From a virus: DNA of 33,923 bases. The stretch lies in the IMG/VR virus record IMGVR_UViG_3300045988_110183; one strand, written 5' to 3'. Of the stretch, positions 4,563-33,923 are shown piece after piece. The position numbers and the translations under genes are program-made. Each line of letters starts with the position of its first letter. Within the stretch, counting starts at the first letter, position 1. The notes beneath the pieces are model-generated. The model was not told the DNA's origin. It saw nothing but the letters and a program-made list of their open reading frames with translations, and ran no database searches.

Positions 4563-4693
4563 GGGCTACTTGCGGCAGCCGTCCTTTTTGATGTTTGCCG
4601 GGTATTGCCCCGAACGGGCCGAATCCTCTGACTTCTTGAAAAGTCTGTCGGTAAAGCCTTGACCGTACCGATCTGCCCCGCGTAATAATAGAA

Positions 4694-12434: not shown

Positions 12435-12498
12435 ATGGAGCCGCCTCCTTTCGTAAGCGGCTCCATTCAGCCCTTAGTGCAGACCATTTACTGCACCG

Positions 12499-13040
12499 TT
12501 ATCCAAAGAATTTGTTGATGTCTGCCTGTGTAGCCTTGATAGGCCACTTGTAGTCGTCGTTTTCACGTTCAATAGCCATATCGTTTACCATGCCCACAGT
12601 CAGCAGGTCAAGATCGCGCAGGGAAATCCCCATCTGACAACACCGCAGCATAAACAGCGGTGTTGTCATTTCGCGGGTCGTCATCCGTGTTTTTTTTTCG
12701 GGGTTGCGGTGGTAAGCGTGTTCAGGTTCCACAGTTCAAGGATCTCCGGCAGAACTTGGTAAATGTCGAAAATCTCAAACTGTTCCAGCCATTCCTCCAC
12801 GCTGCCGGGTACGGCGTCCTTGTCCGCGTGCTTTGCCATGATGTAGGCAACGCTTTCAAACAGCCCCAGATCAGTTGCGGCAAGCTGTTCCTGTTCAGTG
12901 GTGGCTTTCTCGTAGGCGGCGGCAAGTTTTGCCAAATCCTGCATGATGTCACGCCCGAACTTGATGCGGTACAGGCGCGGCACGGCGGCGGTTGCCCGCA
13001 AGCGGACTTCCTTGCCGTCAATATTGATTGTCTTTTCCAT
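12499..13040 (-). CDS. Tail assembly chaperone G-T fusion made by -1 programmed frameshift
   Basis: ORF 12499..12732 is in the -1 frame relative to G and is open across the A9 slippery run. It has no SD of its own. Confidence 0.6.
12681..13040 (-). CDS. Tail assembly chaperone G (119 aa)
   Basis: Position between the major tail and tape measure genes. It ends ...TPKKKHG just after an A9 run. Confidence 0.8.
   Translation of the reverse strand: MEKTINIDGKEVRLRATAAVPRLYRIKFGRDIMQDLAKLAAAYEKATTEQEQLAATDLGLFESVAYIMAKHADKDAVPGSVEEWLEQFEIFDIYQVLPEILELWNLNTLTTATPKKKHG
12690..12698 (-). promoter_or_regulatory. Slippery A9 run (CCG AAA AAA AAA CAC) for the G/G-T -1 frameshift
   Basis: T9 on the plus strand at 12690-12698. 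A frame check (13040 mod 3 = 2, 12732 mod 3 = 0) fits a -1 slip on the minus strand. Confidence 0.6.
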
Positions 13041-20794: not shown

Positions 20795-21192
20795 TCCGCG
20801 TCACGTCCGGCAACAAAATCATCAAACTGATCTCCGGCATCACTTGTGGGCGGCGGGGTCGTCGCCTTGGGCAGCAGATCAGTCAACTTAGACAACAGCG
20901 TGGCATAGTTCTTGATCGTGGTGTTGTAGCTTTTCAGCGCGGGATTTTCCCGCAACATGGATTGTTCACCCTGCACGAACCATTCCAGCGGGCCGATTTC
21001 ATCAGCCTTGCTTTTCAAGGTGTCCATCATTTTAGACATCCAGACCAGTTCCGAAACGATGTTTGCCGCCAGTCTCCGGCGTTCGTCCGGCACAGCATCA
21101 ATCAAGGTTTGCAGTTCCTTTTCAGACAGCACCCTGGCCGACGCCTTTTTGTTGGTCTTTTTTGTTGTCCCGGTTTTCTTTGTCGCCGCCAT
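20791..21192 (-). CDS. terS: Terminase small subunit, P27-like (133 aa from ATG 21192)
   Basis: Position upstream of TerL. The ATG at 21192 is preceded by GGGGGA. The longer TTG start at 21228 lacks an SD. Confidence 0.7.
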   Translation of the reverse strand: MAATKKTGTTKKTNKKASARVLSEKELQTLIDAVPDERRRLAANIVSELVWMSKMMDTLKSKADEIGPLEWFVQGEQSMLRENPALKSYNTTIKNYATLLSKLTDLLPKATTPPPTSDAGDQFDDFVAGRDAD

Positions 21193-21249
21193 AGCGTCCC
21201 CCTGTGCCAAAAAAGAAAGAGGCCGCAAGCCATCGACATACGCGATAGC

Positions 21250-21417
21250 TTACGGCCCCACTTGGCCCTCAGTACAGCCCACTTGCTGTACCGCACTGCT
21301 TTTCACTTTTCGCCGCACTTCCAAAACGATGATTTCACCGTTTTTTCGGCGCTTGATTTCGGCGGTGTTGCCCCGGTCAAGGATTGACCGCACCGCCCGG
21401 ATTACTTCGTCCGGCAA
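21250..21417 (-). CDS. Hypothetical small protein (55 aa, TTG start, MPDEVIRAVRSILDRGNTAEIKRRKNGEIIVLEVRRKVK...)
   Basis: GGGAGGTGA lies 6 nt before the TTG at 21417. It is below the ORF-track size cut-off. Confidence 0.45.
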   Translation of the reverse strand: MPDEVIRAVRSILDRGNTAEIKRRKNGEIIVLEVRRKVKSSAVQQVGCTEGQVGP

Positions 21418-21541: not shown

Positions 21542-21895
21542 TCAGACCGGGTTATGGTACTTATAGGGGGGAGTACCGCCGCTGCCGCTGTTGCTTGCGT
21601 CCAGCGGTTGCGGCTGGCCTTGTTCATCAAAATAATATAGATTGCCGCCGTCGTTCTCGATCTTGTTGTGGCAGTCGTGGCAAACGTATAGAAAGTTTGC
21701 CGGATTCAATGCCACGTCAGGGTCGTCAATGTTCTGTGGCGTCAGCCATACTTTGTGATGCACAATGTAGCCGGGTTCGTCGCGGCACATCTGGCACAGC
21801 CCGCCATCAATCCTCATACGATCAGCGATAAACGCCGCGCGACATTTCCGCCAGCGGGTTGACTTGTAGAACGCTTTTGCAAAACTCTGTGCCAT
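21542..21895 (-). CDS. HNH endonuclease, packaging-associated (117 aa)
   Basis: CQMCRDE...IVHHK...LYVCHDCHNKIE. Adjacent to the terminase genes, as in cos/HNH phages. Confidence 0.85.
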   Translation of the reverse strand: MAQSFAKAFYKSTRWRKCRAAFIADRMRIDGGLCQMCRDEPGYIVHHKVWLTPQNIDDPDVALNPANFLYVCHDCHNKIENDGGNLYYFDEQGQPQPLDASNSGSGGTPPYKYHNPV

Positions 21896-21980
21896 GTGTC
21901 ACCATTCGGGAAGTGTGTTCATGCTGAACACGGTTGATTGGAAACCCGCCGGGGAATGTGTGATACACAAACCAGCGGGC

Positions 21981-22033
21981 AGGTACATCACGGAATCGAA
22001 CCGCCGCGCAGCGCGCTTGACCTACTCTGTACC
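21981..22033 (-). ncRNA. tRNA-like acceptor/T-arm minihelix element 1 (not a complete tRNA)
   Basis: Minus strand: GGTACAG-21 nt-GGCGG TTCGATT CCGTG-ATGTACC-T-GCC. There is a 6-bp acceptor-like stem and a T-loop consensus, but no D or anticodon arm. Confidence 0.3.
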
Positions 22034-22117
22034 ACAATATCCCGGATTGCCCGCCGGGTCGGGTGTCGTCACTCTTAGGAGGAAGAAAAGCCGTCAGTGT
22101 TCCCACCTGACAAATTC

Positions 22118-22146
22118 ACTATAACACACTTGAAATCCGTTATCAG
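22118..22146 (-). promoter_or_regulatory. Candidate late-operon promoter with an extended -10
   Basis: Minus strand: CTGATA (22146-22141), 17-nt spacer, TGtTATAGT (22126-22118). It is located upstream of tRNA-like element 1 and the HNH/terminase genes. Confidence 0.35.
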
Positions 22147-22173
22147 GTCAACATTGTGAACAAACTGTAAATT

Positions 22174-22503
22174 TTAGGCTTTAGGGCTTGCATCTGGAAT
22201 CAGGTGCGATTCGCGGGCAAGCACATAGCAGTATTCACGTTTGTACCGCTTGAATGTGCTTTCGCTCACGTTTAGATCAAACTGCCGTAGCAGGGTGGCG
22301 GCGCTGGGTCTGCGCGGGTGGCGAATGTTCACCTTTACGGCAGCAACCAGCCGCCGTGCCTCTTGCTGTTGTTCCGCCGGGTATTTGTCGAACAGGGTTT
22401 GTTCAGCGGCGCACAGGGCGGAAAGATACGGCTCTGTCGTTGCGCTCTGTACCAGCCCCGCGCAGACCTTGACGATGCCGGGCGGCAGGGTGTAGTTGTT
22501 CAT
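22174..22503 (-). CDS. Putative late-gene transcriptional regulator (109 aa) with a C-terminal HTH
   Basis: The C-terminal segment DLNVSESTFKRYKREYCYVLARE resembles a sigma region-4/ArpU-RinA-type HTH. It is the last early gene before the packaging module. SD GGAGG. Confidence 0.4.
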   Translation of the reverse strand: MNNYTLPPGIVKVCAGLVQSATTEPYLSALCAAEQTLFDKYPAEQQQEARRLVAAVKVNIRHPRRPSAATLLRQFDLNVSESTFKRYKREYCYVLARESHLIPDASPKA

Positions 22504-22535
22504 GGTTCAGCCTCCGACGGTGGTGGTATTGGTCG

Positions 22536-22874
22536 CTAGTGGGTGACGTTCCGCAATGTGCGGTGATTGTCCGTCAGCCATTCGCCCATCAATGGGCGGT
22601 AATACCCAACCGTAACGCCCAGCGATTTGCAATACACCTCAACGTCTGTGTACGACGGTGGCGGTTCGGTCTTGGCGTTTTTCCAGCCGCCGTGCAAAGA
22701 GGTGGAGGCGCTTTTTACTTTCCAAACAGCTTTTATAGCTTCCATTGTGCGCCGCCCCTCTGGGCTGCTGGAATTGAACGGAATATGCGCCATGATACAC
22801 GCCCCGCGAATCGCGTTCAGCGCATCGCCCCGGTAGATAAGGTCGCTTTCTTTGCCGTAACACGAAAGCTCCAT
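22536..22874 (-). CDS. Hypothetical protein (112 aa). The true N-terminus may be the SD-preceded ATG at 22908, joined through an A8 tract.
   Basis: The ATG at 22874 has no SD. The ATG at 22908 has TAGGAGGG 8 nt upstream, but is out of frame by one base across the A8 run (22874-22881). Confidence 0.55.
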   Translation of the reverse strand: MELSCYGKESDLIYRGDALNAIRGACIMAHIPFNSSSPEGRRTMEAIKAVWKVKSASTSLHGGWKNAKTEPPPSYTDVEVYCKSLGVTVGYYRPLMGEWLTDNHRTLRNVTH

Positions 22875-22964
22875 TTTTTTTCAGCAGCTTTTCTAAAGGG
22901 TCATTCATCTTGATAGCCCTCCTACCGACTAATCGCCATACAGACGTGTACCGCTTTGTCTGCA

Positions 22965-23330
22965 TCAATCAGCTGCATGATTATCCCTCACTCTCTCAAA
23001 ATAAAATTTAATTCCTTTTGCATTCGGCAGGACGTTCCCATAAACAACGCCGATTTTGAAGATGTAGTTTTCTTGCAGCTTTCGGGGGATTTCCGCAATG
23101 TACCGCCGGAATGTTTCAAGGTCGTGGGCGCGCTTGTAGTGGTTGCACATACGGCAGGACGGCATAAGATTTTCAATAGCGTCTGTGCCGGAATCCTCGG
23201 CATTCCATGCCCTTTGCGGTTTGAAGTGGTCTACCTGCATATCGTTGTATGCGATGTGGCGACCTCAGTAAGCGCAATGACCGTCAAATTTCTTGTACAC
23301 CGCAACGCGGGTCTTTTTACTGATTGCCAT
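22965..23330 (-). pseudogene. HNH endonuclease interrupted by an in-frame TGA at a conserved Cys codon
   Basis: MAISKKTRVAVYKKFDGHCAY-TGA-GRHIAYNDMQVDHFKP...NLMPSCRMCNHYK. The TGA (23267-23265) sits where the C of the CxxC knuckle is expected. Confidence 0.7.
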
Positions 23331-23597
23331 TTATTCATCCTCGCTGTACTTATAGTCGTAAAAAGTTCCGTCAGGTTCAACGAAAAATTCTTCTGCTTCC
23401 CATCGTGCATCACAGGTTTTATAATTCTCGCAAGAAGCAAGGCTCACGTCCATGGAACCATCATCACCGCGCTTATACCGTTTGCCAATTTTGCCATCTT
23501 TGCGCATTGTATAATCCAGCGAGTACTGATACAGATTGCTTACAACAATGCGTCCGCCGCAAAGCGGACAGCATTTTATAACTGTTCCAAGGTTCAT
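23331..23597 (-). CDS. Zinc-ribbon protein (88 aa from ATG 23597)
   Basis: CCPLCGG ... C..YKTC. GGAGG lies 8 nt before the ATG. TAAATG junction with the next gene. Confidence 0.6.
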   Translation of the reverse strand: MNLGTVIKCCPLCGGRIVVSNLYQYSLDYTMRKDGKIGKRYKRGDDGSMDVSLASCENYKTCDARWEAEEFFVEPDGTFYDYKYSEDE

Positions 23598-23794
23598 TCT
23601 ATGCCCTCCGTATCCGCCGGGGATTGTGTGGCAGGCTCTTTCTGCTGCCAGTAACAGCAACCGTCATCGCCGTCCGTAAAATCTGCGCAATAAGGGCTTG
23701 CACCGCAAAAGCACACGCCGTTGAAATCTTCCCAATACAGACAGGTTTCACAGCGCAGGGGTTCGGCGTGGGTGCTGTTCATTCTGGTTTCCAT
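23594..23794 (-). CDS. Small Cys-rich protein (66 aa)
   Basis: CETCLYWEDFNGVCFCGASPYC...CCYW. Overlapping stop/start with neighbouring genes. Confidence 0.5.
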   Translation of the reverse strand: METRMNSTHAEPLRCETCLYWEDFNGVCFCGASPYCADFTDGDDGCCYWQQKEPATQSPADTEGIE

Positions 23795-23796
23795 CT

Positions 23797-24129
23797 TTAC
23801 ACGTTTCCACCTTTCCAGTTTTCAATGCTTTCAATGTGCAGAATTTGCAGGATATAGTAGTATTTGTCCGGGTCTGCGCCCCATTCGCGCACACCGCCTT
23901 TGCCGAAGATGCAATGTACCCGCAATACGGCTGCCGGGGCTTTTGAATTGTACCCGGCACGAATTTTTACAGTAAAAATCTTGTATGCTTGACCTTTGCA
24001 ATTCGGGTCGGCAGCTATGGCAGAATTTATGCGAGTTTGGTAATACTCTGTCGCTTCACGGTATTCTTCGCGCTTTTCACCGCGGCAGATCATGTCAAAC
24101 CATTCCTGCTTTATGGGAAGTGTCAGCAT
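23797..24129 (-). CDS. ASCH (PUA-like) domain protein (110 aa)
   Basis: N-terminus LTLPIKQEWFDMICRGEKREEYR is typical of ASCH. SD AAGGAG. Confidence 0.65.
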   Translation of the reverse strand: MLTLPIKQEWFDMICRGEKREEYREATEYYQTRINSAIAADPNCKGQAYKIFTVKIRAGYNSKAPAAVLRVHCIFGKGGVREWGADPDKYYYILQILHIESIENWKGGNV

Positions 24130-24135
24130 TTTTCA

Positions 24136-24825
24136 TTACTCCTTTGTGACCGGGGCAAACAGTGTTTGGTCGTTGTTGGTTGCAAGGGTGGCGGAAAGCT
24201 CGGTCTGTATCAGCGCCCCTTTTCCGCCGCCGTCACAGCCTTGCCGGATTTTCAGCGTGTAGGCGAGATTTTCCCCCCCCCCGGAGGATTTCGCCTGTAC
24301 CATTCTTTCATGCCAGCAATAGCAGTCGTCAGCAAGTCCGGCAACGGCTTTCCCCGCCGGGAGGTGTTCGATTTCTCCCCAGCCGTCCGGGAATCCTTGT
24401 AGGCGGCTGCACTCCAAAGGCATAAGGCGGCGGACAATGTAATGGGGCTGATTATGGGCAACCAGTGTTTCACCACCGCCGCCGGTAGCGCCGCCGTTTG
24501 CCTTGATCGTACCGCCCGCCGGGGATAGGACGTATTCAGAATAGTTTTGCTCGGCGAACGTGTAGGCAACGGCGTGTTCATCTACGGTATTCAGGGTAAA
24601 GCACACCTCCTGATTCAGCCCATCACCTTGCGGGCCGTTTTTCTCGGCGCGGCCGATCATGGAGCCTTGTATGCAGATGCAGGGCTGGACGATCAGCGGG
24701 GTATTTCCGCCGCCGGTGCCGTAGTGGGCGGTAACGGTGTCGGCGGTGTCCAGCGGGCCGGTTGCGCGGCTGTCCTGACTATGCCAGCCAAACAGGGCGG
24801 CGCTGTTTTCAGTCGGCGGCATCAT
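24136..24825 (-). CDS. C5-cytosine DNA methyltransferase-like protein carrying only the TRD/motif IX region (229 aa), with an internal G10 tract
   Basis: IVRRLMPLECSRLQGFPDGW (motif IX-type), plus several TRD-like segments (TVTAHYGTGGGNTPLIV, CFTLNTVDEHAVA, SATLATNNDQTLF). No FxGxG, PCQ or ENV motifs. Confidence 0.5.
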   Translation of the reverse strand: MMPPTENSAALFGWHSQDSRATGPLDTADTVTAHYGTGGGNTPLIVQPCICIQGSMIGRAEKNGPQGDGLNQEVCFTLNTVDEHAVAYTFAEQNYSEYVLSPAGGTIKANGGATGGGGETLVAHNQPHYIVRRLMPLECSRLQGFPDGWGEIEHLPAGKAVAGLADDCYCWHERMVQAKSSGGGENLAYTLKIRQGCDGGGKGALIQTELSATLATNNDQTLFAPVTKE

Positions 24826-25364
24826 TTGCCCTCGCCCTGCGCAATGGCGCGTTTCAGCTTGTTCAGGTTGAAGTCCATTTCACCGACAAAGCGTAGGCAC
24901 AGATCATGATTGATACCGTTGCCCAAATAGGTATAGATGTATTCCATGCTTGTGCGTGTATAAATCGTGCCGCAAAATTGGTTGATACCGTTCAAGTGGT
25001 ATTTCTGACTTGCCGAATTGTACGACTTGCAGGCTTCACGGCTGCACCATTCAATAATCCGGGCATTCAGTTCGTCCAGCGTGTCCGCACCGTACAGCGG
25101 TACAGTGATATTGCGCGCCGGATAGACAATCAATTCAAGGCGCAGGTTCATAATTGCTTTCGGAAATGCGGATTGCAGGTCGTACCGAACCGCCCGATCT
25201 AATAAGATACCCTTTGCGTAGACAGGCGACGGGGTCACGGTGGGTTCTGCTTTGATAAGCGCCCGGAAACTTTCAACAGCAAAATTGCGGGTCATAACGT
25301 GGTTGCTGTCGTTGCTGTGGGCGGGCAGTTTGCTTTCAAGGCTGTCGGCATCTATCATTCGCAT
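24822..25364 (-). CDS. Hypothetical protein (180 aa)
   Basis: SD GGAGGA with 8-nt spacing. Coupled to the downstream gene (ATGA). No domain recognised. Confidence 0.6.
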   Translation of the reverse strand: MRMIDADSLESKLPAHSNDSNHVMTRNFAVESFRALIKAEPTVTPSPVYAKGILLDRAVRYDLQSAFPKAIMNLRLELIVYPARNITVPLYGADTLDELNARIIEWCSREACKSYNSASQKYHLNGINQFCGTIYTRTSMEYIYTYLGNGINHDLCLRFVGEMDFNLNKLKRAIAQGEGK

Positions 25365-25367
25365 TTT

Positions 25368-25592
25368 TCATTCCTCCAGTCGTGCGCAATGTTCGACGAT
25401 GATATTTTCCTTGCCCGCCGGGGTGTTTCGGGTATATTTTTCACACCGATAGGCGGGGCAGTCATCATGCAGGCACGGCATAAAATATTCATTCCTGAAT
25501 ATTGCATCTGGAATTGTGGCAGAGGGCGTGGTTACGCCGTGAACACGGAATGGGCACACCATGCGGCTTTTTTCTTCTTCCTTGTGCATCAT
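25368..25592 (-). CDS. Small Cys-rich protein (74 aa)
   Basis: SD GGAGGA. Cys residues at CPF...PCLHDDCPAYRC...HC. Confidence 0.5.
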   Translation of the reverse strand: MMHKEEEKSRMVCPFRVHGVTTPSATIPDAIFRNEYFMPCLHDDCPAYRCEKYTRNTPAGKENIIVEHCARLEE

Positions 25593-25595
25593 GAG

Positions 25596-25811
25596 TTATT
25601 CCTCCAGCAATTCAGCCGCTTTCAGCATGACGGCACAGCCGTTTGTGCGGCAGTTGTGTTCAAACCCACAGCCGACGCACTCCCAATAGCAAGGGGAGGC
25701 AGGGCGCGGGAAAGCGGCAATCTTTTTCAGCTGTTCCAGTAGTTCCGGGCTTGCTTTTTCCATGGGAACGCTTGTACAGTTGGCGGCATCAAATTTCAGA
25801 TGTTGTGGCAT
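25596..25811 (-). CDS. Small Cys-rich protein (71 aa from ATG 25811)
   Basis: AGGAGG lies 8 nt before the ATG at 25811. CYWECVGCGFEHNC..NGC. Confidence 0.5.
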   Translation of the reverse strand: MPQHLKFDAANCTSVPMEKASPELLEQLKKIAAFPRPASPCYWECVGCGFEHNCRTNGCAVMLKAAELLEE

Positions 25812-26229
25812 TGGTTGCACCTCCTGTTGTGGTGCGTTTCTGGGAAGAAACTGTGCGCAAGCGGGGATGTACTACCAACTGACAGCCGCACATCGGGCAA
25901 TCAAAAGCGTCGTGTTCGCCGTCCACAACGGCGTCTCCGCTTACAATGGTTGTGCCGCGCAAATAATTGAATCTTCCGTAGTTGTGTGTGCCGTAAACGG
26001 TATAGCGGTTATCCGGCAGCGCCGCGAACTCATACCCACACACAGGGCATTTCAGATCGTGGGCAATCGCAACCGCTTGGGGTGGCGGCAAGGGGGCTTC
26101 ATACGGCTTTGCGGGGGTATTGAGAGTTCTATTCTTGAATTTTTTATGCGGAATATCAAAGCAGATTTTAACCGCCGCGCCCGCAATGGCTGCGAACACT
26201 AAGACAACCGCGATAATCAGATATTGCAC
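25789..26229 (-). CDS. Membrane-anchored zinc-ribbon protein (146 aa from GTG 26229)
   Basis: GGGAGGTG lies 5 nt before the GTG. N-terminal TM helix (YLIIAVVLVFAAIAGAAV). CPVCG ... CPMCGC. Confidence 0.55.
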   Translation of the reverse strand: MQYLIIAVVLVFAAIAGAAVKICFDIPHKKFKNRTLNTPAKPYEAPLPPPQAVAIAHDLKCPVCGYEFAALPDNRYTVYGTHNYGRFNYLRGTTIVSGDAVVDGEHDAFDCPMCGCQLVVHPRLRTVSSQKRTTTGGATNATTSEI

Positions 26230-26231
26230 AA

Positions 26232-27299
26232 TTACACCTCCCATGTGAACGGCAGCCCAATTCGGCAGGCCCCGCGCACATCATCATAGAAATAGCAGCC
26301 TTGGCAGCATTCGCCGCTGCCATTCTGTTCACAGTAGTTGCTAAGATCGCGGGCAGCGTTGGCTAAAGCGTCGGTATCGGTGTCAGTGTCCTGCGTGGGC
26401 GGTTCCGTTGCTGGCAGTTCGGACACCGGCGCAGGGCTGACGGCAACCGCCGAGGGCTCCTTGGGTTTGGGCTGAATCGGCGGCGTGGGCTGTTCCGCCG
26501 GGGACGGCGGTGTCTCCACAGAACACGCAAGTGCCGATTGTGCAACAGGGGCGTCCGTGGTTGCAACAGCAACCTCAGTCGGGGCAGTTTGGCAGGGGGC
26601 TTTCTCCCTTTGTTTCCGGGCAGATTTCAGGGCGCGGGCGTTCTCCATCGTGGGCACCGGGTACAGCGCGGCAACTTCTTCCTGCTGACGCTTTGGCAAG
26701 CTGCTTAATTCATAGGCAACCTGCGTACCAATCACGCCGTCTTTGTATCGGCGCATCAAGGTGGGTGTCAGGTGCTTGTAGATTGCCTGATACTTGCCCG
26801 CCTGCGCCGAGGATATGCCCAGCGCCGTTGCAACTGCCGCGCGGGTCTTGCCCTCGACCTTGCCGCCGCCCGCTTTGAACTCGCGGGCAATTTCGGCGGT
26901 CTTGACGGTTTCCATCATGTTTTCATACTCGGTTTCTTTGCGGGCGGTGCGGTTCATCAAAATAAGCCGCGCCTGATCTGCAAGGGCACCGAGGCTGGTT
27001 GTCAGCCGTGCATCGACTTCCCGCCAACGGTCGGGGTCTTTGGCGTACAGGGTGAGCAGGGCAAGACGGCGGCGGTGCCCGCCGGTCAGACGGTACTTGC
27101 CGGGTTCATCATCCGCCGGGCGAACGACCAACGGCTGTTCAAGCCCGAAAGCGTCTATTGCCGCCGCAAGTTCTTCTATTTCATCGGTGTTGTAGAAATT
27201 TTCGGGGTCGGGCAGAATGTCCTCCAGCTTGACGCGAACAAAGCGGTCTTGTTCCGGCTTGCTTTCAGCTGCCCGCAATACATCTTGAATCAGGTTCAT
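26232..27299 (-). CDS. ParB-like (ParB/Srx N-terminal domain, IbrB-like) DNA-binding protein with a Pro-rich linker and Cys-rich C-terminus (355 aa from ATG 27299)
   Basis: LEDILPDPENFY...FGLEQPLVVRP...YRLTGGHRRRLAL (ParB box). HTH-like AVATALGISSAQAGKY. SD GGAGGG. Confidence 0.8.
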   Translation of the reverse strand: MNLIQDVLRAAESKPEQDRFVRVKLEDILPDPENFYNTDEIEELAAAIDAFGLEQPLVVRPADDEPGKYRLTGGHRRRLALLTLYAKDPDRWREVDARLTTSLGALADQARLILMNRTARKETEYENMMETVKTAEIAREFKAGGGKVEGKTRAAVATALGISSAQAGKYQAIYKHLTPTLMRRYKDGVIGTQVAYELSSLPKRQQEEVAALYPVPTMENARALKSARKQREKAPCQTAPTEVAVATTDAPVAQSALACSVETPPSPAEQPTPPIQPKPKEPSAVAVSPAPVSELPATEPPTQDTDTDTDALANAARDLSNYCEQNGSGECCQGCYFYDDVRGACRIGLPFTWEV

Positions 27300-27311
27300 G
27301 GTTCCCTCCGG

Positions 27312-27330
27312 GGTGTTCCAGTGGAACACC
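27312..27330. repeat. parS-like palindrome, copy 2 (GGTGTTCCAgTGGAACACC), 13 nt upstream of the ParB-like start codon
   Basis: 9-bp arms. Identical to the core of the copy at 13057-13081. The half-site TGTTCCA matches the Firmicute parS half-site TGTTNCA(C). Confidence 0.6.
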
Positions 27331-27341
27331 AAAACGGCATT

Positions 27342-27548
27342 TTATTTTTTCTTGCCGGATTCGGCGTGCCGGGCTTTGTCGCCCTGTTTCTGCCACTCCG
27401 GGAGCTTTTCGGACAGGGTCATAATGTAGAATTGGGCGATAATATCCCGCGTGTCTGTGGGTAGGCTTTCAAACTGCTGGATAATGTTTTCCCGGATTTT
27501 CGCCGGGTCTGACGTGTTATGATGCAGGGGCTTTTTCTTGGCTTTCAC
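27342..27548 (-). CDS. Hypothetical small protein (68 aa from GTG 27548)
   Basis: GGAGG lies 7 nt before the GTG. GTGA overlap with the upstream stop. Confidence 0.5.
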   Translation of the reverse strand: MKAKKKPLHHNTSDPAKIRENIIQQFESLPTDTRDIIAQFYIMTLSEKLPEWQKQGDKARHAESGKKK

Positions 27549-27757
27549 AAGATTACCTCCTTGCCGGTTCTGACATCGACTCGCACAGGGCGGGTGCCTT
27601 TCCGTGCAAATTCGGGGTGCATAGTGCGGTGGCATTGGCTTTTTGGGTCGTCGGGGTGATCGACGGCGCACCACTTGTGCATACAGGCAGTGTTCAGCGC
27701 CGGGTCACATTCATACAGGGTAATTGCGTTATTGCAAACGCAGCCAAAATCAATCAT
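27545..27757 (-). CDS. Small Cys-rich protein (70 aa)
   Basis: SD GAAAGGA. ATGA overlap with the upstream gene. Cys pattern CVC...C...C..WC...C. Confidence 0.5.
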   Translation of the reverse strand: MIDFGCVCNNAITLYECDPALNTACMHKWCAVDHPDDPKSQCHRTMHPEFARKGTRPVRVDVRTGKEVIL

Positions 27758-27969
27758 CGTTTCCGTCCTTTCCGTTGGTTGTACAGTCCGTTCTTGCGGA
27801 CGTCTCGGCGTATTTTGTCGCCGCGCTCGGCATCGGCAGAATCCATGCGCCGTTCTGCATCGCGGGCGGCGCTGATCTGATCACACAGCTTGCGGTATTG
27901 CGCATAGTCCGGGCACCGGCTGTGACAGTTCACCGCCCGCCGGGGGCATTGGTAACAGGGTGTGTTCAT
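27754..27969 (-). CDS. Small Cys-rich, basic protein (71 aa)
   Basis: CYQCPRRAVNCHSRCPDY...C. SD AAGGAA. ATGA overlap. Confidence 0.5.
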   Translation of the reverse strand: MNTPCYQCPRRAVNCHSRCPDYAQYRKLCDQISAARDAERRMDSADAERGDKIRRDVRKNGLYNQRKGRKR

Positions 27970-28130
27970 TGCTTACGTTCCTTGATCTTGTACCCGGCAG
28001 CTTTCAGCGCCTTTAGGGTGTCAGGCGGCGGAATGCAAGCCGGGCTGTCGGTCTGCATCATAATCCGCCCATCTTTTGCAAAGACCGCGAACAGCGGCGC
28101 AGGGGCTTTACAGCGGCAAGGGCTGTTCAT
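27966..28130 (-). CDS. Small Cys-containing protein (54 aa from ATG 28130)
   Basis: GGAGGTG lies 7 nt before the ATG at 28130. The longer start at 28223 would overlap parA by 116 nt. Confidence 0.4.
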   Translation of the reverse strand: MNSPCRCKAPAPLFAVFAKDGRIMMQTDSPACIPPPDTLKALKAAGYKIKERKQ

Positions 28131-28896
28131 ATCCCAACACCTCCAGCACGTCATCTGTAAGGGCGCGGAAATCGCGGGCGGCGTTGCTCCATCGACTTGA
28201 TACGGACAGCGGTGTTCCGGCATCGTTGCTATTTTCGACTTTCACAGTTGATTCCCGAATGCCGCTGCCCAACAGGGCAAGGTCGGTGTTTTCGGCAGCT
28301 TTTGCCGCCTGATCGGGGCGATAGCGGGTAATGATGACGTGGGCTTTCAGCTTTGGGTTTTCCTGCTGCGCGGCGGTGATCTGTTCCCACACCTCGGAAA
28401 GCCCTTTGCGGGCGTTTTTATCCAGCGTGATTGGCAAAAGGGCAAGGTCGGCAGCCATAAGCGCATTGATGCTTGCCATGTCAATATCCGGCGCGCAGTC
28501 CACAACAACAAAGTCAAACGCGCTTTCGTTTTCCGCAAGGTAGCGGCGCAGGCGCTTATCCCGCCCACTGGAGGTATCCAGCAGCAAGGATATGTTCGAC
28601 TTCATAAGGCGGTAGTCGCTGGGCAGGACGAACAAATGCGGGTATATATCGCCGTTCGGCTTGCGCGCGGGGCAAATGGCTTTCAGATAGAGGGCTTCAT
28701 CGGAGTTTTTAGCAGTTAGCACATCGCCCAGACCGTACTTAAAATCGCGGATTCCGTAAAACTCGGTGCTGTTGCCCTGTTTGTCGGCGTCGATCAGCAG
28801 GGTTTCGCCGACGTTGGAAAGCTCATAGGCAAGGTTTGTGGCGGTGGTAGTTTTGCCGACGCCGCCTTTCAAATTCAGAATGACAATAGTTTTCAC
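28108..28896 (-). CDS. parA: ParA/Soj-family partition ATPase (262 aa, GTG start)
   Basis: Deviant Walker A: LNLKGGVGKTTTATNLA. AAGGAG lies 8 nt before the GTG. Confidence 0.9.
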   Translation of the reverse strand: MKTIVILNLKGGVGKTTTATNLAYELSNVGETLLIDADKQGNSTEFYGIRDFKYGLGDVLTAKNSDEALYLKAICPARKPNGDIYPHLFVLPSDYRLMKSNISLLLDTSSGRDKRLRRYLAENESAFDFVVVDCAPDIDMASINALMAADLALLPITLDKNARKGLSEVWEQITAAQQENPKLKAHVIITRYRPDQAAKAAENTDLALLGSGIRESTVKVENSNDAGTPLSVSSRWSNAARDFRALTDDVLEVLGYEQPLPL

Positions 28897-29030
28897 TTTT
28901 TCTTGCTCCTTTTCTTCTTCTGGTGCTGCTTGGCTTTGGCGCGGTCTTTGCCCGGCTTGGCGTAGTAGTTCATCATAGTCTCAAAACGGCGGTACGCGCT
29001 GCCGCTGTGACGTTTCTTGCTGTTATTCAT
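28893..29030 (-). CDS. Very basic micro-protein (45 aa, MNNSKKRHSGSAYRRF...KQHQKKKRSKKK), coupled to parA
   Basis: The ATG lies 2 nt after the PAPS-reductase stop, and the TGA overlaps the parA GTG (GTGA). It is below the ORF-track cut-off. Confidence 0.4.
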   Translation of the reverse strand: MNNSKKRHSGSAYRRFETMMNYYAKPGKDRAKAKQHQKKKRSKKK

Positions 29031-29032
29031 GG

Positions 29033-30274
29033 TTAGTAATCCTCAATAGACATTTGACCGGGTAGCTGGCCGGGTTCGTTTTCCCATTCCACGCCGATGT
29101 AGTCGAGTACGCGGCCCCATCCATACCAGTCACCATTTTCGTCACGACAAACATGACGCATCCAAAATTCCCATTCTTTGGGGTTTGCGCGGCGCAGGCG
29201 GTCAAACCGGTTCGGGCGCTGTTCCAGCTGGATGCCGAAACCGCACATCGTACAGCCTGTGCGCTGCGCAAGGGTTGTGCGCAGGGTTCCGTCCTTGTCT
29301 CGGACGATCTCGCCATATTCCGCCGGGATGGGAACATTCAGATCAAGGACCAGTTGCAAAATATCCTGCCTGCTGAATATGGCGAACGGTGCGCTTCGGA
29401 TGGTACTTTTACCGTAGTAATTGCACCCATGCATCATAAGGCTTTTTCGTCTGCGTCCGCCCTCGGATGCCATCAAACCAAGATAGGGCACGCTGTTGTG
29501 TTCTTTGGCCCAGTCGTCGCACGGCTTTTCTTTGAGATAGTAGCAGCAGCGTTCGGATACTTTGAACGGAGCCGCAGTATATCCCAGCGCCGCGCCCTCT
29601 GCATCTGCGCCGCCGAACTTTTCAAGCCATTTTTGGCTTAGTTTCATGCGGCTGTCTTTCTGGAATCCGCCATATTCGCCCGTCTCGCCCGTAATGATTG
29701 CATGGCGAACAGTGGCATTTTTGGGTGTCGGGTTTTGTAATAGACTGATCTTACCCGCAATCTCTTTGCTAAGTACGGGCCAGCCCAATTCTTCAATGAC
29801 TTTGGTTTTCGGCTTCAACGGCTTCAAAAAATACATTCGCGGTGCAGGCGGGCAAGCGTCGTGTGCTACCTGTTCTCTCGCTCTGGTATCGGGGTCTGTG
29901 ATGGTGTCGATCTCATCCTGCGGCAGAGCCATGTGCGCGCCCAGCCATTCCCGCGCCGAGTAGGTGTTTTCCATTTCGGCGGCAATCTGCTTGTGTACAG
30001 CCTGCACGCCTTTCTGTTCTAGGGAAGAACAGCTGACACAAGGAACATGAACACCGCAGGATTCAAGAAAATAGTGCAGTGTGATGGAATCCAGCCCACC
30101 GACAGAGACATGGCAGTTCAGGCCCATTTCGCTGCATTTGTCCTGATAACTGCGGGCAACATTTTCAACATGGCGAATTTTCTGTTTGTAGGTGTAATGT
30201 TCCTGCATATAGCGGAAATTCTGAATGTTGGCTTCTGCGCCGGTTTCCTGCATGATCTGCTGTACTGTTTTCAT
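29033..30274 (-). CDS. PAPS-reductase family PP-loop protein, IbrA-like size and architecture (413 aa)
   Basis: PP-loop-like HVSVGGLDSITLHYF. The roughly 410-aa length with a Cys-containing C-terminal extension is as in IbrA/DUF3440-type phage proteins. Confidence 0.7.
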   Translation of the reverse strand: MKTVQQIMQETGAEANIQNFRYMQEHYTYKQKIRHVENVARSYQDKCSEMGLNCHVSVGGLDSITLHYFLESCGVHVPCVSCSSLEQKGVQAVHKQIAAEMENTYSAREWLGAHMALPQDEIDTITDPDTRAREQVAHDACPPAPRMYFLKPLKPKTKVIEELGWPVLSKEIAGKISLLQNPTPKNATVRHAIITGETGEYGGFQKDSRMKLSQKWLEKFGGADAEGAALGYTAAPFKVSERCCYYLKEKPCDDWAKEHNSVPYLGLMASEGGRRRKSLMMHGCNYYGKSTIRSAPFAIFSRQDILQLVLDLNVPIPAEYGEIVRDKDGTLRTTLAQRTGCTMCGFGIQLEQRPNRFDRLRRANPKEWEFWMRHVCRDENGDWYGWGRVLDYIGVEWENEPGQLPGQMSIEDY

Positions 30275-30738
30275 AGCTGATACTGCGGCTTATACCGCCC
30301 CTCCAGATAGTCCGTGATGACAGCGGCGGCGGCTTCCCAGCCTTTGCAAACTTCCACGGCGTAACCGGCCTCGCGCAAGTCGGAAATCCATTGCTTTTGT
30401 GCAGCTGATACCGTACCGCCGCGCTGTCGTTTCAATTCGATGTACAGGCCGTTATACTTGGTTCGGATAATGGTATACTGGCCGCGATCAACGGAATCCA
30501 ACTTTTGAATGCCTACCGGCAGGAAGATGTCAGGTACACCGGCTTTCACGCCCATGGCGCGGAACCGTGCCGCTTCGGATTTACTGCGCTTGCCGCCGTT
30601 GGGAACATGGTACATAAGCGCAAGCTCCGGGTATTTGCCCTGCTGTGCGTTTGCCCATCGGAAAAGGCAGATTTGTTCAACATCTTCGGTAGGGGGCGGC
30701 AGGGTGTATTTAATATCCGCCATTGAATGATCTTGCAC
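30271..30738 (-). CDS. VRR-NUC (PD-(D/E)xK) nuclease (about 150 aa; start uncertain, 30738 GTG or 30723 ATG)
   Basis: GVPDIFL ... LYIELK ... SAAQKQWISDLREAGYAVEVCKGWEAA. Confidence 0.8.
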   Translation of the reverse strand: MQDHSMADIKYTLPPPTEDVEQICLFRWANAQQGKYPELALMYHVPNGGKRSKSEAARFRAMGVKAGVPDIFLPVGIQKLDSVDRGQYTIIRTKYNGLYIELKRQRGGTVSAAQKQWISDLREAGYAVEVCKGWEAAAAVITDYLEGRYKPQYQL

Positions 30739-31603
30739 TTCCTTTCTTGCTGGCAGGCGGCAGGGGCGCGTAATGATCGCGCAGGGCGTAGCTTGCCGCC
30801 CCTGCTGTGGTGGTTATCATGCGGTCGAACATAGGCCCGAAAAGCTGTACAGGCGGTGGGAACTGCGCCTCTGTGTTTGCGGCGATCTGCACAACTGCTT
30901 TCACGTCCTGTTCTGTGTAGCCACGGTCAAACAGGTTGTACACCTGCTTTCTTGTTTGCTTATCACCCTGCAAATTTGCCCCTGTGTAGGATTGAATCAG
31001 GGCTATAATGCGGGTACAGCTTTCGCGTCTGTTTTCAACAGACTTTTCAACAGTCGTTTCGGGGGGAAGATTATGTTGGGGGTTAATCTCATTTTGTCTA
31101 ATATAATCTTCTGTGCGAAAACTCGGTTTTTGTGGTTCGTTATCTTGGTTTCTGTATGCGGTTATTCCGTTTTTGTGTACAAAAACTAAACCGGCGCGGG
31201 GCGTTGCCTCTAAAAGCCAGTATTCAACAATAATTGGTATTTCGCCGGTACGCCTTGCAATGCCGTCAAGATAGCGGCTTTGAATTGCGCGCGAGGTTAG
31301 TATTCCGTCCGTTGTAAATAAGGCTTTATCGAAAAGCCCTAAAGACACGCACAGATCAACGATTGCCCGAACTTGGGTTGACTTCAAGCCGCCGCCCAGC
31401 TTGCGGGCTGTACTCGCGGCGTTGTCATATCCCCAGCGGTAGAAATAACCATCGGTGGCGTAGGCTTTTTGGCACAGAGCAAAGTAGACATAAAAGCCCG
31501 CTGGCCCCTGTGCATCAATCAAGGCATCAATAGAGGTATCGTTTTCCAGTACGTCAACATCCCACGTCGAATAGTTCAGGTTCCGCTTCGGCGGTCTCCC
31601 CAT
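30710..31603 (-). CDS. Replication protein: Lin1244/DUF4373-like N-terminal domain + DnaD-like replisome organiser C-terminal domain (297 aa)
   Basis: STWDVDVLENDTSIDALIDAQGPAGFYVYFALCQKAY...; C-terminal ...YTGANLQGDKQTRKQVYNLFDRGYTEQDVKAVVQIAA. SD GGAGGA. Confidence 0.7.
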   Translation of the reverse strand: MGRPPKRNLNYSTWDVDVLENDTSIDALIDAQGPAGFYVYFALCQKAYATDGYFYRWGYDNAASTARKLGGGLKSTQVRAIVDLCVSLGLFDKALFTTDGILTSRAIQSRYLDGIARRTGEIPIIVEYWLLEATPRAGLVFVHKNGITAYRNQDNEPQKPSFRTEDYIRQNEINPQHNLPPETTVEKSVENRRESCTRIIALIQSYTGANLQGDKQTRKQVYNLFDRGYTEQDVKAVVQIAANTEAQFPPPVQLFGPMFDRMITTTAGAASYALRDHYAPLPPASKKGSARSFNGGY

Positions 31604-31626
31604 AAGCTATTCCTCCGTGTGCGGCG

Positions 31627-31977
31627 TTACTGCCCGCAGTAATCACCGGCGGCGGTATAGTTCGCCGGATTTGCGCGGGGGTCGCTCCACCCATATTGAA
31701 TACCCGCTTCCATTGCCGCCGCCTGTGCGGGGCTTACGCGCAAGGCCTGGTTCATGTAGGCGCAGGCTGTGCGGCGCACAGCGTCAAGCACGGTGTCGGC
31801 GGCGCGGGCTTTGTCATGGGGTTCAGGCGCGGAATAGTACACGCTGTCGCCGGGGTAGACAATGGCCGGTCGCCCGAAATCGTAGGGGTTGGGAACATAC
31901 GCCTGCGCGGGCAGACCCGCGTATACTTGCTGGGAAGTGTCACGGCGTGGGCTTTCGATGATGGACGTGTCGATCAT
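31627..31977 (-). CDS. Hypothetical protein (116 aa from ATG 31977)
   Basis: AGGAGG lies 9 nt before the ATG at 31977. The longer ORF-track start at 32541 runs through an intergenic region and the methyltransferase 3' end. Confidence 0.55.
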   Translation of the reverse strand: MIDTSIIESPRRDTSQQVYAGLPAQAYVPNPYDFGRPAIVYPGDSVYYSAPEPHDKARAADTVLDAVRRTACAYMNQALRVSPAQAAAMEAGIQYGWSDPRANPANYTAAGDYCGQ

Positions 31978-32095
31978 GCTTTTCAATCCTCCTGTGTTTT
32001 TCTTATCCGCCGGGGCTTCATGCGGCTTTGGCGGCTCATATAGTGCCGGTCTTTCCCGGCTGTCAGCTATGAGGAGGTAAAGAGAGAAAAGGGGC

Positions 32096-32150
32096 AGCGG
32101 GCCGTCAGAATCGAACTGACCGATGCTGTGAAATCTGCGCCAGCGCCCGC
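32096..32150 (-). ncRNA. tRNA-like acceptor/T-arm minihelix element 2 (not a complete tRNA)
   Basis: Minus strand: GCGGGCG-23 nt-GTCAG TTCGATT CTGAC-GGCCCGC-T-GCC. Perfect 5-bp T-stem, T-loop consensus and a 6-bp acceptor-like stem. Confidence 0.35.
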
Positions 32151-32350
32151 ATATATACCCAGCGGGCACGAACAGGCTTGCCCGCCGGGGCGGATAGGGG
32201 CAACGCCCCTTTAGGTGTCCGACACCTCCGTGCGGCAGATAGCGGCCCGCACGGTGCCCGGTCAGCCGTTTGCACCCCTTTCTGTAAGTTGCTTTCGGCT
32301 GCTGGCAGCGGTCAGTTCTGCGCCGATACCACCAAACGCGCATAGGGTTG

Positions 32351-33120
32351 TTATAGTAGGCACAGCTGTTCACCGGCGCTTTCTGCCGCTGCCTGCCGGA
32401 ATAGGCTTTGCTGTGCGGCGTATGCGTCAAAATCGGCGCAGCCCTTGGCATAGTATTCCGGGTCAACTTCAAACCCGATGAAATCCAGCCCCGCATCATA
32501 GGCGGCCTTGCGGCTGTTGCCGCTGCCGAGGTGGGTATCAAGGATTTTATCGCCGGGGTGACAGAACAGGCGGAAAATCCAGTCGTACAGACCGATGGGC
32601 TTTTCCGTGGGGTGCCAGTGCTTTGCGCCTTTACTGCGGGTGCTGGAAAGTGAAATCAGCTTTGCGTTTTCGTTTAAGCTGCACCACGCAAATTCACATT
32701 GCGCCATGGTAAAGTCGGTCGGTATGTTGGGCTTGTTCCAGATCAGGAAACACCGGCAGGGTGGCAGGTCAAAGTAATTGCCGCCCCAGATGATTTGTTG
32801 CTTGGAAACGCGAAACAATTCATCAAAGTATTCCGGGCGTGGCGCGTTGTCCCACGCTATGATTTTTTTGCCGTATTTCGCCGCCCATGCGCCGCCAGTT
32901 CGGGTAATGCTATACCCCCCCCCGCAAGGTTCTGAACCGCCGGGGCAGTAGAACGGTAACGATCAAACCGCCCACCAAAGCGGGTTTTATCGGAGCATTT
33001 GAACACGTTGCCCGCGCCTCCATATGGCGGGTCAACCACGGCAAGGTCAAAATAGCCATCGGGAAACTGCGCCATGCCCTGCATACAGTCAATGTTGTAG
33101 GAGTGGTTTAATTCAAGCAT
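32351..33120 (-). pseudogene. N6-adenine/N4-cytosine DNA methyltransferase (beta-class, DPPY), split by a frameshift in a G9 tract
   Basis: The N-terminal part (MLELNHSYNIDCMQGMAQFPDGYFDLAVVDPPYG) is in one frame. The C-terminal part (...TGGAWAAKYGKKIIAWDNAPRPEYFDELFRVSKQQIIWGGNYF...HPTEKP...LDTHLGSGNS) is reached only with one extra G at 32915-32923. Confidence 0.8.
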
Positions 33121-33583
33121 CAGGCGATACCCGGTGCGCATATCGGCAGACAGTTTCGGAAACGTAAGCCAAAATGCCGATTCGGTCATGCTCATCAATC
33201 GGTAAATCGACTTTATCACCGGCTGCAAACTTGATTTGAACCGAACTATTGCGCCCAGCGCAAGTGCTGTCTGCGTTCGTGCGCAGGAAGTAGTTGACTT
33301 CTGCAACCAGCGGGCAGCTGATTTTCAGCATTTCCGCAAGGCTGCGCATATAGTTTTCCGTCGGCGGTAAGCCGTAGCGCATTGCCCGGACAGCTTCAAG
33401 GGAGGTCGGGGGCAGTATTTGCGCTGCGCGATCAAGGCGGTTAAGGGTACGATCAAGCAGTTCATTCACCGCCGTTACATGGGCGAAAAGATCGTTCAAT
33501 TTCGCGTGGGCATCGTCGGTGTCCAACTGAATTTCGATTTCAATGCCGGAGCTTTTGGTGTTCTTTGTTTCAACAGGTGTCAT
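33113..33583 (-). CDS. Hypothetical early protein (156 aa)
   Basis: Coupled to the flanking genes by overlapping start/stop codons. No domain recognised. Confidence 0.55.
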   Translation of the reverse strand: MTPVETKNTKSSGIEIEIQLDTDDAHAKLNDLFAHVTAVNELLDRTLNRLDRAAQILPPTSLEAVRAMRYGLPPTENYMRSLAEMLKISCPLVAEVNYFLRTNADSTCAGRNSSVQIKFAAGDKVDLPIDEHDRIGILAYVSETVCRYAHRVSPDA

Positions 33584-33843
33584 TTTGTCGCGTCCTTTCT
33601 ATCCGCCGGGGTTCGCCCACGGCGTTTGATATTCTGATTGGTGGTTTGCTGGGCTTTCTCGGCGCTGTAAACTTTGCGCCCGCCGGGATAACGCTTGCCG
33701 GTATAGCCGCGCGGCAATTCTCGGTAGATTGTCGCCAGCGATACCCCTACAACCCCGGCAATGCTGGACGGTGTGATTCCGTGCGCATATAGCTTTTCAA
33801 TAAGTAGGCGGTCGTTGTGGGTAAGGTATCTATATTCGCGCAC
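33580..33843 (-). CDS. Stand-alone IS30-type HTH (HTH_38-like) protein, a paralogue of the transposase N-terminus (87 aa from GTG 33843)
   Basis: YLTHNDRLLIEKLYAHGITPSSIAGVVGVSLATIYRELPRG aligns with transposase residues HLTRTDRLRIEKCLNEGYTYRQIADVLRVHISTVYREIERG. GAGGTG lies 5 nt before the GTG. Confidence 0.65.
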   Translation of the reverse strand: MREYRYLTHNDRLLIEKLYAHGITPSSIAGVVGVSLATIYRELPRGYTGKRYPGGRKVYSAEKAQQTTNQNIKRRGRTPADRKDATK

Positions 33844-33868: not shown

Positions 33869-33923
33869 AATAATGCGAAAAAGGTGTAAAACCTCTTTCG
33901 CATTTAATACTAATATTTTCATA
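33869..33923. repeat. 55-bp exact terminal direct repeat, copy 2 (identical to 1-55)
   Basis: Base-for-base identity with the window start. Confidence 0.9.

Follow-up and report, generated by a model that had tools for sequence, protein, structure and literature searches.

A shortened tRNA-like element upstream of phage replication genes: a candidate RNA processing signal

INTRODUCTION

How does a gut phage genome in which ARAGORN finds no transfer RNA (tRNA) or transfer-messenger RNA (tmRNA) gene come to keep, between its genes, a structure that looks like the upper half of a tRNA? The question is raised by IMG/VR virus record IMGVR_UViG_3300045988_110183, a stretch of 33,923 nucleotides (nt) that we call the window. 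An earlier note on this DNA had pointed to two tRNA-like minihelices, element 1 (21981..22033) and element 2 (32096..32150, 55 nt), both on the minus strand. Here we report a computational analysis of element 2 and its surroundings. Element 2 appears best described as belonging to a shortened, anticodon-less class of phage tRNA-like structures. With more doubt than confidence, we suggest that it is a tRNA-derived “top half” in a polycistronic RNA that may serve as a processing (punctuation) signal for RNase P and RNase Z.

RESULTS

Architecture of element 2

Every gene identified in the window is carried by the minus strand, hereafter the coding strand, and element 2 is on this transcribed strand. 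It is located in a 373-nt gap with a methyltransferase gene fragment upstream and a gene for a 116-residue protein downstream. The latter gene precedes that of the replication initiator, which is found approximately 500 nt downstream of the region, so the earlier description of a noncoding tRNA-like element upstream of replication genes holds on the coding strand.

From 32150 to 32096, element 2 reads GCGGGCG-CTGGCGCAGATTTCACAGCATCG-GTCAG-TTCGATT-CTGAC-GGCCCGC-T and is followed by GCC, exactly as first described. It comprises the 5′ strand of an acceptor-like stem (32150-32144), a 23-nt spacer that begins with CUGG (32143-32121), the T arm GTCAG-TTCGATT-CTGAC (32120-32104), the 3′ strand of the acceptor (32103-32097), and a discriminator-like T (32096). 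The perfect T arm and the 6-bp (base pair) acceptor-like stem of the initial description can be read directly, with a G.G (or G.A) opposition at position 7. As in canonical tRNAs, the T-like arm has a 5-bp stem and a 7-nt UUCRANY loop, and the acceptor 3′ strand comes immediately after it. The tail is TGCC, with no encoded CCA.

Immediately upstream is an A/U-only leader, TATATAT (32151..32157), whose last residue, U at position -1, abuts G+1 of the element. In a sister lineage the leader is TACATGT, likewise U-terminal, which disposes of a reading of TATATAT as a promoter. U-1 and G+1 are found in both elements and in both lineages of each. An acceptor stem and a T arm form a sufficient minimal substrate of RNase P, and U-1/G+1 is the preferred cleavage context of the bacterial enzyme. 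By sequence, element 2 has these substrate features, namely a stacked helix of 6 + 5 bp, the leader UAUAUAU, and U-1/G+1.

A structural descriptor (6-bp acceptor, 12-31-nt spacer, T arm with a TTCRANN loop, and acceptor 3′ strand abutting the T arm) matched only elements 1 and 2 on the two strands of the window. Shuffled windows that preserved mononucleotide content only gave a mean of 0.05 matches and a maximum of 1. The fold stability of a 66-nt piece containing element 2 was unremarkable relative to shuffles (z = -0.9).

Element 2 is neither a canonical tRNA nor a tmRNA, as it is called by neither ARAGORN nor Rfam. The cloverleaf of a canonical tRNA, with its D arm and anticodon arm, has approximately 42 nt from the acceptor 5′ strand to the T arm, versus 23 nt in element 2. 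At E ≤ 10, Rfam searches of positions 31900-32420 gave two chance-level matches only (E of 1 and 2.8) and no match to RF00005, C4, YrlA, ROOL, or GOLLD, and a search of the element 1 region (21850-22250) gave nothing relevant. At gathering thresholds, the whole window has two gut-2 motifs and one RT-9 motif, all away from the two elements. A literature search for phage minihelices found nothing relevant.

Related elements in unrelated phages

We searched for relatives with covariance models. Because a joint MAFFT alignment of elements 1 and 2 misaligned the 5′ strands, a model-guided alignment was used instead. Model R1, built from element 1 alone, aligned only with the T arm of element 2 (10.2 bits, E = 1.5), and no full-length homology was detected. 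R1 had full-length matches in unrelated metagenome contigs, at loci L175 (52 nt), L171/L184 (44 nt), and L089. Model R2 was built from the element 1 lineages together with L175, L171, and L089, with element 2 left out. R2 recovered element 2 in full length (32095-32151, minus strand, 22.1 bits, E = 0.0018 by a rough calibration) as its second-best match in the window, the next being at E = 0.21. The kinship of the two elements asserted in the earlier note is thus upheld as a related plan that R2 detects, but R1 fails to connect them. The covariance search that the note had recommended did find further members in unrelated phage contigs, 43 to 55 nt long, including L205 (43 nt) and L111 (55 nt) with R2, as well as longer aberrant tRNA-like sequences.

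In the R2 consensus, U at -1 is kept and the acceptor 5′ strand leads directly into GA-AGGUC, whose GG occupies the place of G18-G19 of tRNA; then come a middle hairpin, which is short or missing, and the T arm. U-1 is present in all members, and G+1 in all but L175, which has A. The members have GG early in the spacer and a leader of 4 to 7 nt, usually A/U-rich, behind a GC hairpin. In addition, the GCGC-GGCGG-TTCGATT-CCG segment of element 1 is identical to the variable loop and T arm of genuine phage tRNAs in other contigs. From the recovery of element 2 by R2, the independent members, and the identity of element 1 to phage tRNA segments, we conclude that these elements derive from tRNAs by loss of the anticodon arm and that they recur in phages.

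A T arm followed by an acceptor 3′ strand is also the usual content of phage attachment sites (attP) that target tRNA genes. Element 2 might then be the 3′ part of a host tRNA gene, restoring the tRNA upon integration. This idea is already largely refuted. No integrase was found among the genes scanned, and an exact-pattern scan for the T arm and acceptor 3′ strand in 185,579 species genomes returned one unrelated Chloroflexia tRNA and no prophage copy. Furthermore, the acceptor 5′ strand is present as well, and in element 1 it covaries.

Conservation of element 2 and its region

The region containing element 2 was found in approximately 20 IMG/VR contigs and that of element 1 in approximately 25; no close relatives were found among GenBank phages and plasmids. 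These sequences represent essentially two lineages per element, and thus few independent events. From the stop codon of the methyltransferase fragment to the ribosome-binding site (RBS) of the 116-residue protein gene (31981..32353, minus strand), the window and its sister lineage, represented by L039, are 85% identical. The gene that follows is 59% identical between the lineages, and the one that precedes is unrelated. Within the region, conservation is highest in element 2, an island with 3 of 55 columns variable versus 70 of 326 elsewhere. Downstream of it, a 25-nt stretch forms a second island (2/25 columns vary), and the remaining parts vary at 13 to 50% of their columns.

All the changes in element 2 are a C-G to U-G change at acceptor pair 6, a G/A alternation at unpaired position 7, and one change in the T loop. 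The latter, found in one contig (L038), gives TTCAATT and keeps a purine at loop position 4. The T-arm stem and the 23-nt spacer are invariant. This degree of conservation argues against the elements being decaying relics, discussed below.

Across the region, 99.4% of the cells are paired, versus 36 to 50% when the partners are slid. RNAalifold and pair counting identified five pairs with compensatory changes in the neighboring hairpins. There are also numerous G-C/G-U alternations, which pair only when the minus strand folds; their restriction to the coding strand fits an RNA or one particular single strand. An open reading frame (ORF 31627-32541) runs through the region, but indels of 1 and 2 nt between the lineages and the compensatory pattern of substitution rule out protein coding across it.

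The same data bear on a function at the DNA level, in which the hairpins and the T-arm-like palindrome would act as a replication origin, a single-strand initiation signal, or protein-binding sites. The proximity of the replication initiator gene and the A/T-only heptamer between GC-rich hairpins would suit such a role. However, the tolerance of G-U on the coding strand only, the position of element 1 before packaging rather than replication genes, and the identity to tRNA T loops, which it leaves unexplained, make it improbable. The origin suggested in the earlier note also found no support, as neither iterons nor other origin features were found in the region.

Element 1 and the identity of the acceptor stem

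Element 1 (GGTACAG-21 nt-GGCGG-TTCGATT-CCGTG-ATGTACC-T) is located upstream of an HNH endonuclease/terminase operon. A hairpin, CCCGG-CGGGCAAT-CCGGG, and the leader ATATTGT precede it (22034..22058, minus strand). The order of hairpin, short leader, and U-1 is common to element 1, element 2, and the L175 member. The two lineages of element 1 differ at four acceptor pairs, three of them compensatory and one a G-C/G-U alternation, and 100% of the cells remain paired. Neither of the two conditions under which the earlier note would have withdrawn its reading thus refutes it, since further members exist and the element 1 acceptor has compensatory changes.

We also considered a small tRNA mimic acting in trans. 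Element 2 would be excised and given a CCA end, and would then act as a sponge or decoy for proteins recognizing the acceptor and T arm (for example, defense toxins that modify tRNA 3′ ends), or it would be charged. The strong conservation of all 55 nt, unpaired spacer included, and the recurrence of anticodon-less tRNA-like elements in unrelated phages are in keeping with this proposal. So is the acceptor sequence of element 2, since G1-C72, C2-G71, G3-C70, and U73 form the acceptor identity set of bacterial tRNA-Gly. Nevertheless, the acceptor stem and discriminator of element 1 differ from those of element 2 and change between lineages, so no common identity is kept. No CCA enzyme, ligase, or synthetase-like gene was seen among the scanned genes of the window. 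We regard this role as unlikely.

Upstream of element 1 on the coding strand (22099-22146), a promoter-like CTGATA-17-TATAGT with a TG is followed at once by a hairpin, GTCAG-GTGGGAACA-CTGAC, and GGCUUUUCUU. To judge from the sequence, a terminator or pause site close to the promoter may here precede the late operon.

Neighboring structures and a possible leader RNA

Several other structures surround element 2 on the minus strand. The three additional hairpins of the earlier note are all located where it placed them: GGGGC-aac-GCCCC (32197-32209) and CCGTGCGG-11-CCGCACGG (32228-32254), with two compensatory pairs each, and the hairpin or palindrome GGTGTCcGACACC (32214-32226), whose stem is invariant. 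Farther 5′, a CAGCCG...CGGCTG stem-loop (32263..32301) has one compensatory pair, C-G to U-A. Directly upstream of the leader, hairpin D (CCCGGCGGGCA-10 nt-TGCCCGCTGGG, 32158..32189) is an inverted repeat with G-C to G-U changes that keep pairing on the minus strand only.

Hairpin D is what the earlier note called a shared flank. The sequence TTGCCCGCCGGG does occur at both sites, 22047-22058 and 32178-32189, the latter ending one position short of the reported 32190. CCCGGCGGGCAA is found a third time, at 25411. The paralogous context is upheld only in part, since it rests mainly on this flank, an instance of a strand-polar octamer, CCCGGCGG, and on a 3′ tail that is not conserved. This octamer is the commonest 8-mer of the coding strand, with 19 copies on the minus strand and none on the plus strand (2.5 expected), and 4 of the 19 are in the two element-bearing intergenic regions. 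What both elements do have in common is a GC-rich hairpin with the octamer, a 7-nt A/U-rich leader ending in U, and G+1. Copies of CCCGGCGG are found for instance at 820, 7315, 14205, 21946, 22051 ... 33680, with 15 of the 19 in the early/replication part (21946-33687). The octamer is equally strand-polar in related contigs, and most coding copies have one reading frame in common. It ends in GCGG, as do some Firmicute Chi sites, and it is possibly a Chi-like or regulatory site.

A further segment, GAACUGACCG (32309..32318), is complementary to CGGUCAGUUC (32113-32122), which covers the 5′ strand of the T arm and the start of its loop. The inverted repeat extends over 14 nt with 93% complementarity and is formed in the single-sequence minimum free energy (MFE) structure. 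As a possible alternative fold, it would come at the expense of the T arm of element 2. Both segments are invariant, so covariation is silent about this pairing. A closing helix may form between 32328-32343 and 32020-32035, where the changes are all G-U compatible.

These features call to mind a cis-regulatory leader, in which the minihelix would be one domain of a structured RNA of approximately 330 nt controlling the replication genes, through the GAACUGACCG:CGGUCAGUUC switch or through docking of the T loop on an RNA or a factor. The conservation of the whole region, the covariation of several hairpins, the alternative 10- to 14-nt pairing of the MFE structure, the possible closing helix, and the invariant spacer speak for it. 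Conversely, neither the alternative pairing nor the closing helix is backed by covariation, the 3′ partner of the latter is present in L095 without its 5′ partner, and the 373-nt region is only mildly more stable than shuffles (z = -1.7). The surrounding architecture is also absent at element 1 and at the members in other contigs. We consider a leader of this kind a minor possibility, though a serious one.

Two other roles for parts of the region were rejected. A CCUCCU at approximately 32075 could pair with the downstream RBS as an anti-Shine-Dalgarno sequence; it is not conserved in the sister lineage. The spacer could be an antisense seed; no complementary target was found on the coding strand.

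A hairpin motif that precedes phage tRNA genes

The second conserved island, 30 nt 3′ of element 2, contains a 22-nt hairpin, TGACA-GCCGG-GAAAGA-CCGGC-A (32044..32065, minus strand). Its general form is TGRCA-GCCGG-GAAAGA-CCGGC-A, with an invariant loop and a covarying stem. We collected the matches to this GAAAGA motif as loci L090-L209, L216-L335, and L210-L215. Exact matches to the 19-nt core number at least 120 in metagenome contigs, which come from gut, soil, freshwater, and marine samples. In IMG/VR, at least 120 matches were obtained for a compensatory stem variant, GCCCG/CGGGC, and in still other copies the hairpin is maintained by additional compensatory or G-U changes. The motif is also present between the genes of cultured phages that infect Escherichia, Klebsiella, Cronobacter, Pseudomonas, Stenotrophomonas, Acinetobacter, Xanthomonas, and cyanobacteria, among them phage mEp390, Pseudomonas phage Medea1, and Stenotrophomonas phage Pokken. 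It is nearly invariant in phages of Proteobacteria and of Cyanobacteria as well as in gut phage contigs. Beyond a 23-nt core, made up of (C)TGR and the 19-mer, the flanks are random.

Among the matches listed, tRNA genes called by ARAGORN start 0 to 12 nt after the motif, mostly 4 to 5 nt, in 30 of 190 distinct contexts, where approximately 0.12 would be expected. Many other copies are directly followed by an aberrant tRNA-like sequence or an RBS. The motif could be read as a sigma-70 promoter (CTGACA-17-TATATG). However, no conserved -10 box is seen in 111 contexts among the matches listed, and tRNA 5′ ends or an RBS come only 0 to 12 nt after the motif, which together argue against this reading. 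By eye, the core sequences do not fit a hepatitis delta virus (HDV)-like or a hammerhead ribozyme; no descriptor was run for these. In the stretches searched against Rfam the motif had no match, and a literature search turned up no paper with its sequence.

Some contigs have arrays of three to four copies (L104, minus strand, ~100-1000; L158, 1400-2700). After most copies, at a distance of 4 to 7 nt, comes an unusual tRNA-like sequence that ARAGORN does not call as a tRNA; it has a T arm, an abnormal middle part, and in many cases a 3′ CCA. In lambdoid phages, a noncoding unit headed by the motif is found beside the repressor gene (mEp390, L210, 1500-1700; an Escherichia coli prophage, L336, 1480-1770), in the order motif, hairpin of ~70 nt, tRNA-Arg, and terminator; the tRNA-Arg is absent from mEp390, and the motif is degenerate in the prophage. 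In three environmental contigs (L117, L135, and L165), two consecutive T-arm-like hairpins are found ~40-150 nt upstream of the motif. The second hairpin is inside a minihelix in L117 and L165, with GGUGAAAGAC in the spacer, where L135 has GGUGCGAAGGGA. This arrangement may represent a related composite RNA.

The frequency of aberrant tRNA-like genes beside the motif raises the question of whether both elements are decaying, functionless relics of phage tRNA genes without anticodon arms, carried along with neighboring regulatory DNA. Their resemblance to the variable-loop and T-arm segments of real phage tRNAs fits such an origin, as does the lack in mEp390 of the tRNA-Arg that the E. coli prophage has at the matching position. 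Decay does not sit well with element 2 being the best conserved stretch of its region, with the four altered acceptor positions of element 1 at which every pair is kept, or with the length, GG, and U-1 common to independent members. We thus think it unlikely that the elements are relics.

Gene and genome context

The two ends of the window (1-55 and 33869-33923) carry an identical 55-nt direct repeat. On this basis, we regard the window as a complete genome of 33,868 bp, assembled as a circle, that has no tRNA genes. Among the genes on its minus strand are those for the terminase large subunit (19082-20794), the HNH endonuclease (21542-21895), the replication initiator (phrog_2562/Lin1244_N, 30710-31603), ParA-like and ParB-like proteins, and a reverse transcriptase of the diversity-generating type (3447-4562). 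Upstream of the element 2 region, two adjacent ORFs (32351-32818 and 32857-33306) both match DNA methyltransferase families (phrog_67) in different parts, which suggests a split or frameshifted gene.

One of the two gut-2 motifs (12453-12500, minus strand) is located ahead of an ORF of 1,030 residues (9342-12434), probably the tape-measure gene. The other (21248-21295, minus strand) is between the HNH gene and ORF 20791-21228, which is directly upstream of the large terminase gene and probably encodes the small terminase subunit. The RT-9 motif (4583-4673, minus strand) adjoins the reverse transcriptase gene. A 349-residue protein (92-1141, minus strand) matches phrog_4646, “transposase” (E = 3e-128), and is possibly TnpB-like.

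DISCUSSION

A putative processing signal

How might such an element act? Element 2 would keep the acceptor stem, a GG-containing remnant of the D loop, and the T arm with its canonical UUCGAUU loop, the anticodon arm having been lost. It would be transcribed within a minus-strand polycistronic RNA, between the methyltransferase-containing and replication modules. The acceptor and T stems are predicted to stack into a helix of 11 to 12 bp with the tRNA elbow recognized by bacterial RNase P. The cut would fall between U-1 and G+1, where the unstructured A/U leader ends, with RNase Z and the CCA-adding enzyme possibly acting on the 3′ side. As a punctuation mark, element 2 would part the upstream and downstream segments of the transcript. 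Cleavage would either give the downstream RNA a flush and structured 5′ end or release a small and stable tRNA-like RNA. Element 1 may do the same job ahead of the packaging/structural operon.

Several points weigh against this processing role. A CCA is not encoded, and conservation does not extend to the 3′ tail: the T-GCC tail that had been proposed as a trait of both elements is ACAC in the sister lineage of element 1. The sampled diversity amounts to essentially two phage lineages. The T arm of element 2, being invariant, lends itself to no covariation analysis, and the acceptor has a single, one-sided change. A pure processing signal would have no need of the sequence-specific role to which the invariant 23-nt spacer points. 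In the predicted single-sequence MFE structure, the T-arm 5′ strand is engaged in the competing long-range pairing. Lastly, element 1 is downstream of a promoter-like site, and element 2 is upstream of the only promoter-like stretch of its region.

Similarity to known systems

Precedents for tRNA-like processing signals are found in mitochondria. The t-elements of plant mitochondria, and mitochondrial tRNA punctuation in general, similarly involve tRNA-like structures in polycistronic RNAs, often an acceptor and a T arm only, at which RNase P and RNase Z generate ends, and we propose that element 2 may work in much the same manner. The mitochondrial structures belong to another domain of life, whereas the phage elements, known from sequence, have a 52- to 55-nt plan, a conserved GG, and a hairpin followed by an A/U leader. 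Minihelices made of an acceptor stem and a T arm were reportedly described as minimal RNase P model substrates by McClain, Guerrier-Takada, and Altman in 1987. Element 2 has in common with them the two stacked helices and U-1/G+1. However, those substrates are artificial and have a 3′ CCA, whereas the phage elements have no CCA and an inserted spacer of 21 to 23 nt.

The tRNA-like domain of tmRNA also has an acceptor stem, a T arm, a D-loop remnant without a D stem, and no anticodon arm; in contrast to tmRNA, element 2 has no tag reading frame, pseudoknots, or G3-U70. The C4 RNA of P1 and P7 and the CI RNA of P4 are excised by RNase P from operon leaders through a tRNA-like fold, ahead of regulatory or replication genes, and element 2 is similar in fold and place. 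It differs from C4 in that no target repeats complementary to its spacer were found, and no C4 match was obtained, as mentioned above. YrlA, a bacterial and phage Y-RNA-like tRNA mimic with a T arm and a D-loop-like part, is alike as well, but element 2 has no Ro-binding stem, no rsr gene nearby, and no Rfam match to YrlA. Finally, the theta (HDV-like) ribozymes of gut phages are small RNA elements tied to the formation of tRNA ends, as they start within 5 nt of the tRNA 3′ end (PMC10879173). In contrast, the 35 nt after element 2 offer no P1 partner by eye; no ribozyme descriptor was run.

Significance

A bolder scenario, to which we give only a slim chance, is an undescribed class of phage tRNA mimics of 43 to 55 nt, without anticodon, present in many environments and each made up of an acceptor stem, a GG remnant of the elbow, and a T arm. 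They would be released from operon leaders by the tRNA-processing machinery and act in trans, as decoys for tRNA-end-directed defense toxins or tRNA-modifying enzymes or as chargeable amino acid carriers. They would be genetically linked to the GAAAGA hairpin, which would mark the 5′ side of phage tRNA and tRNA-like genes.

If the function of these elements is only processing, they would be a modest extension of known tRNA-like punctuation. The GAAAGA hairpin, a by-product of this analysis, may matter more than element 2 itself. The two adjoin each other here, which ties the minihelix class to a second element found right in front of phage tRNA genes. If the shortened tRNA look-alikes truly are processing signals or small RNAs, then a class of RNA that recurs in phages escapes both tRNA gene finders and Rfam. 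A 34-kb phage without a tRNA gene would be keeping two such elements under selection, at its two main operon boundaries, and this opens the question of how gut phages with all their genes on one strand cut or stabilize their long transcripts.

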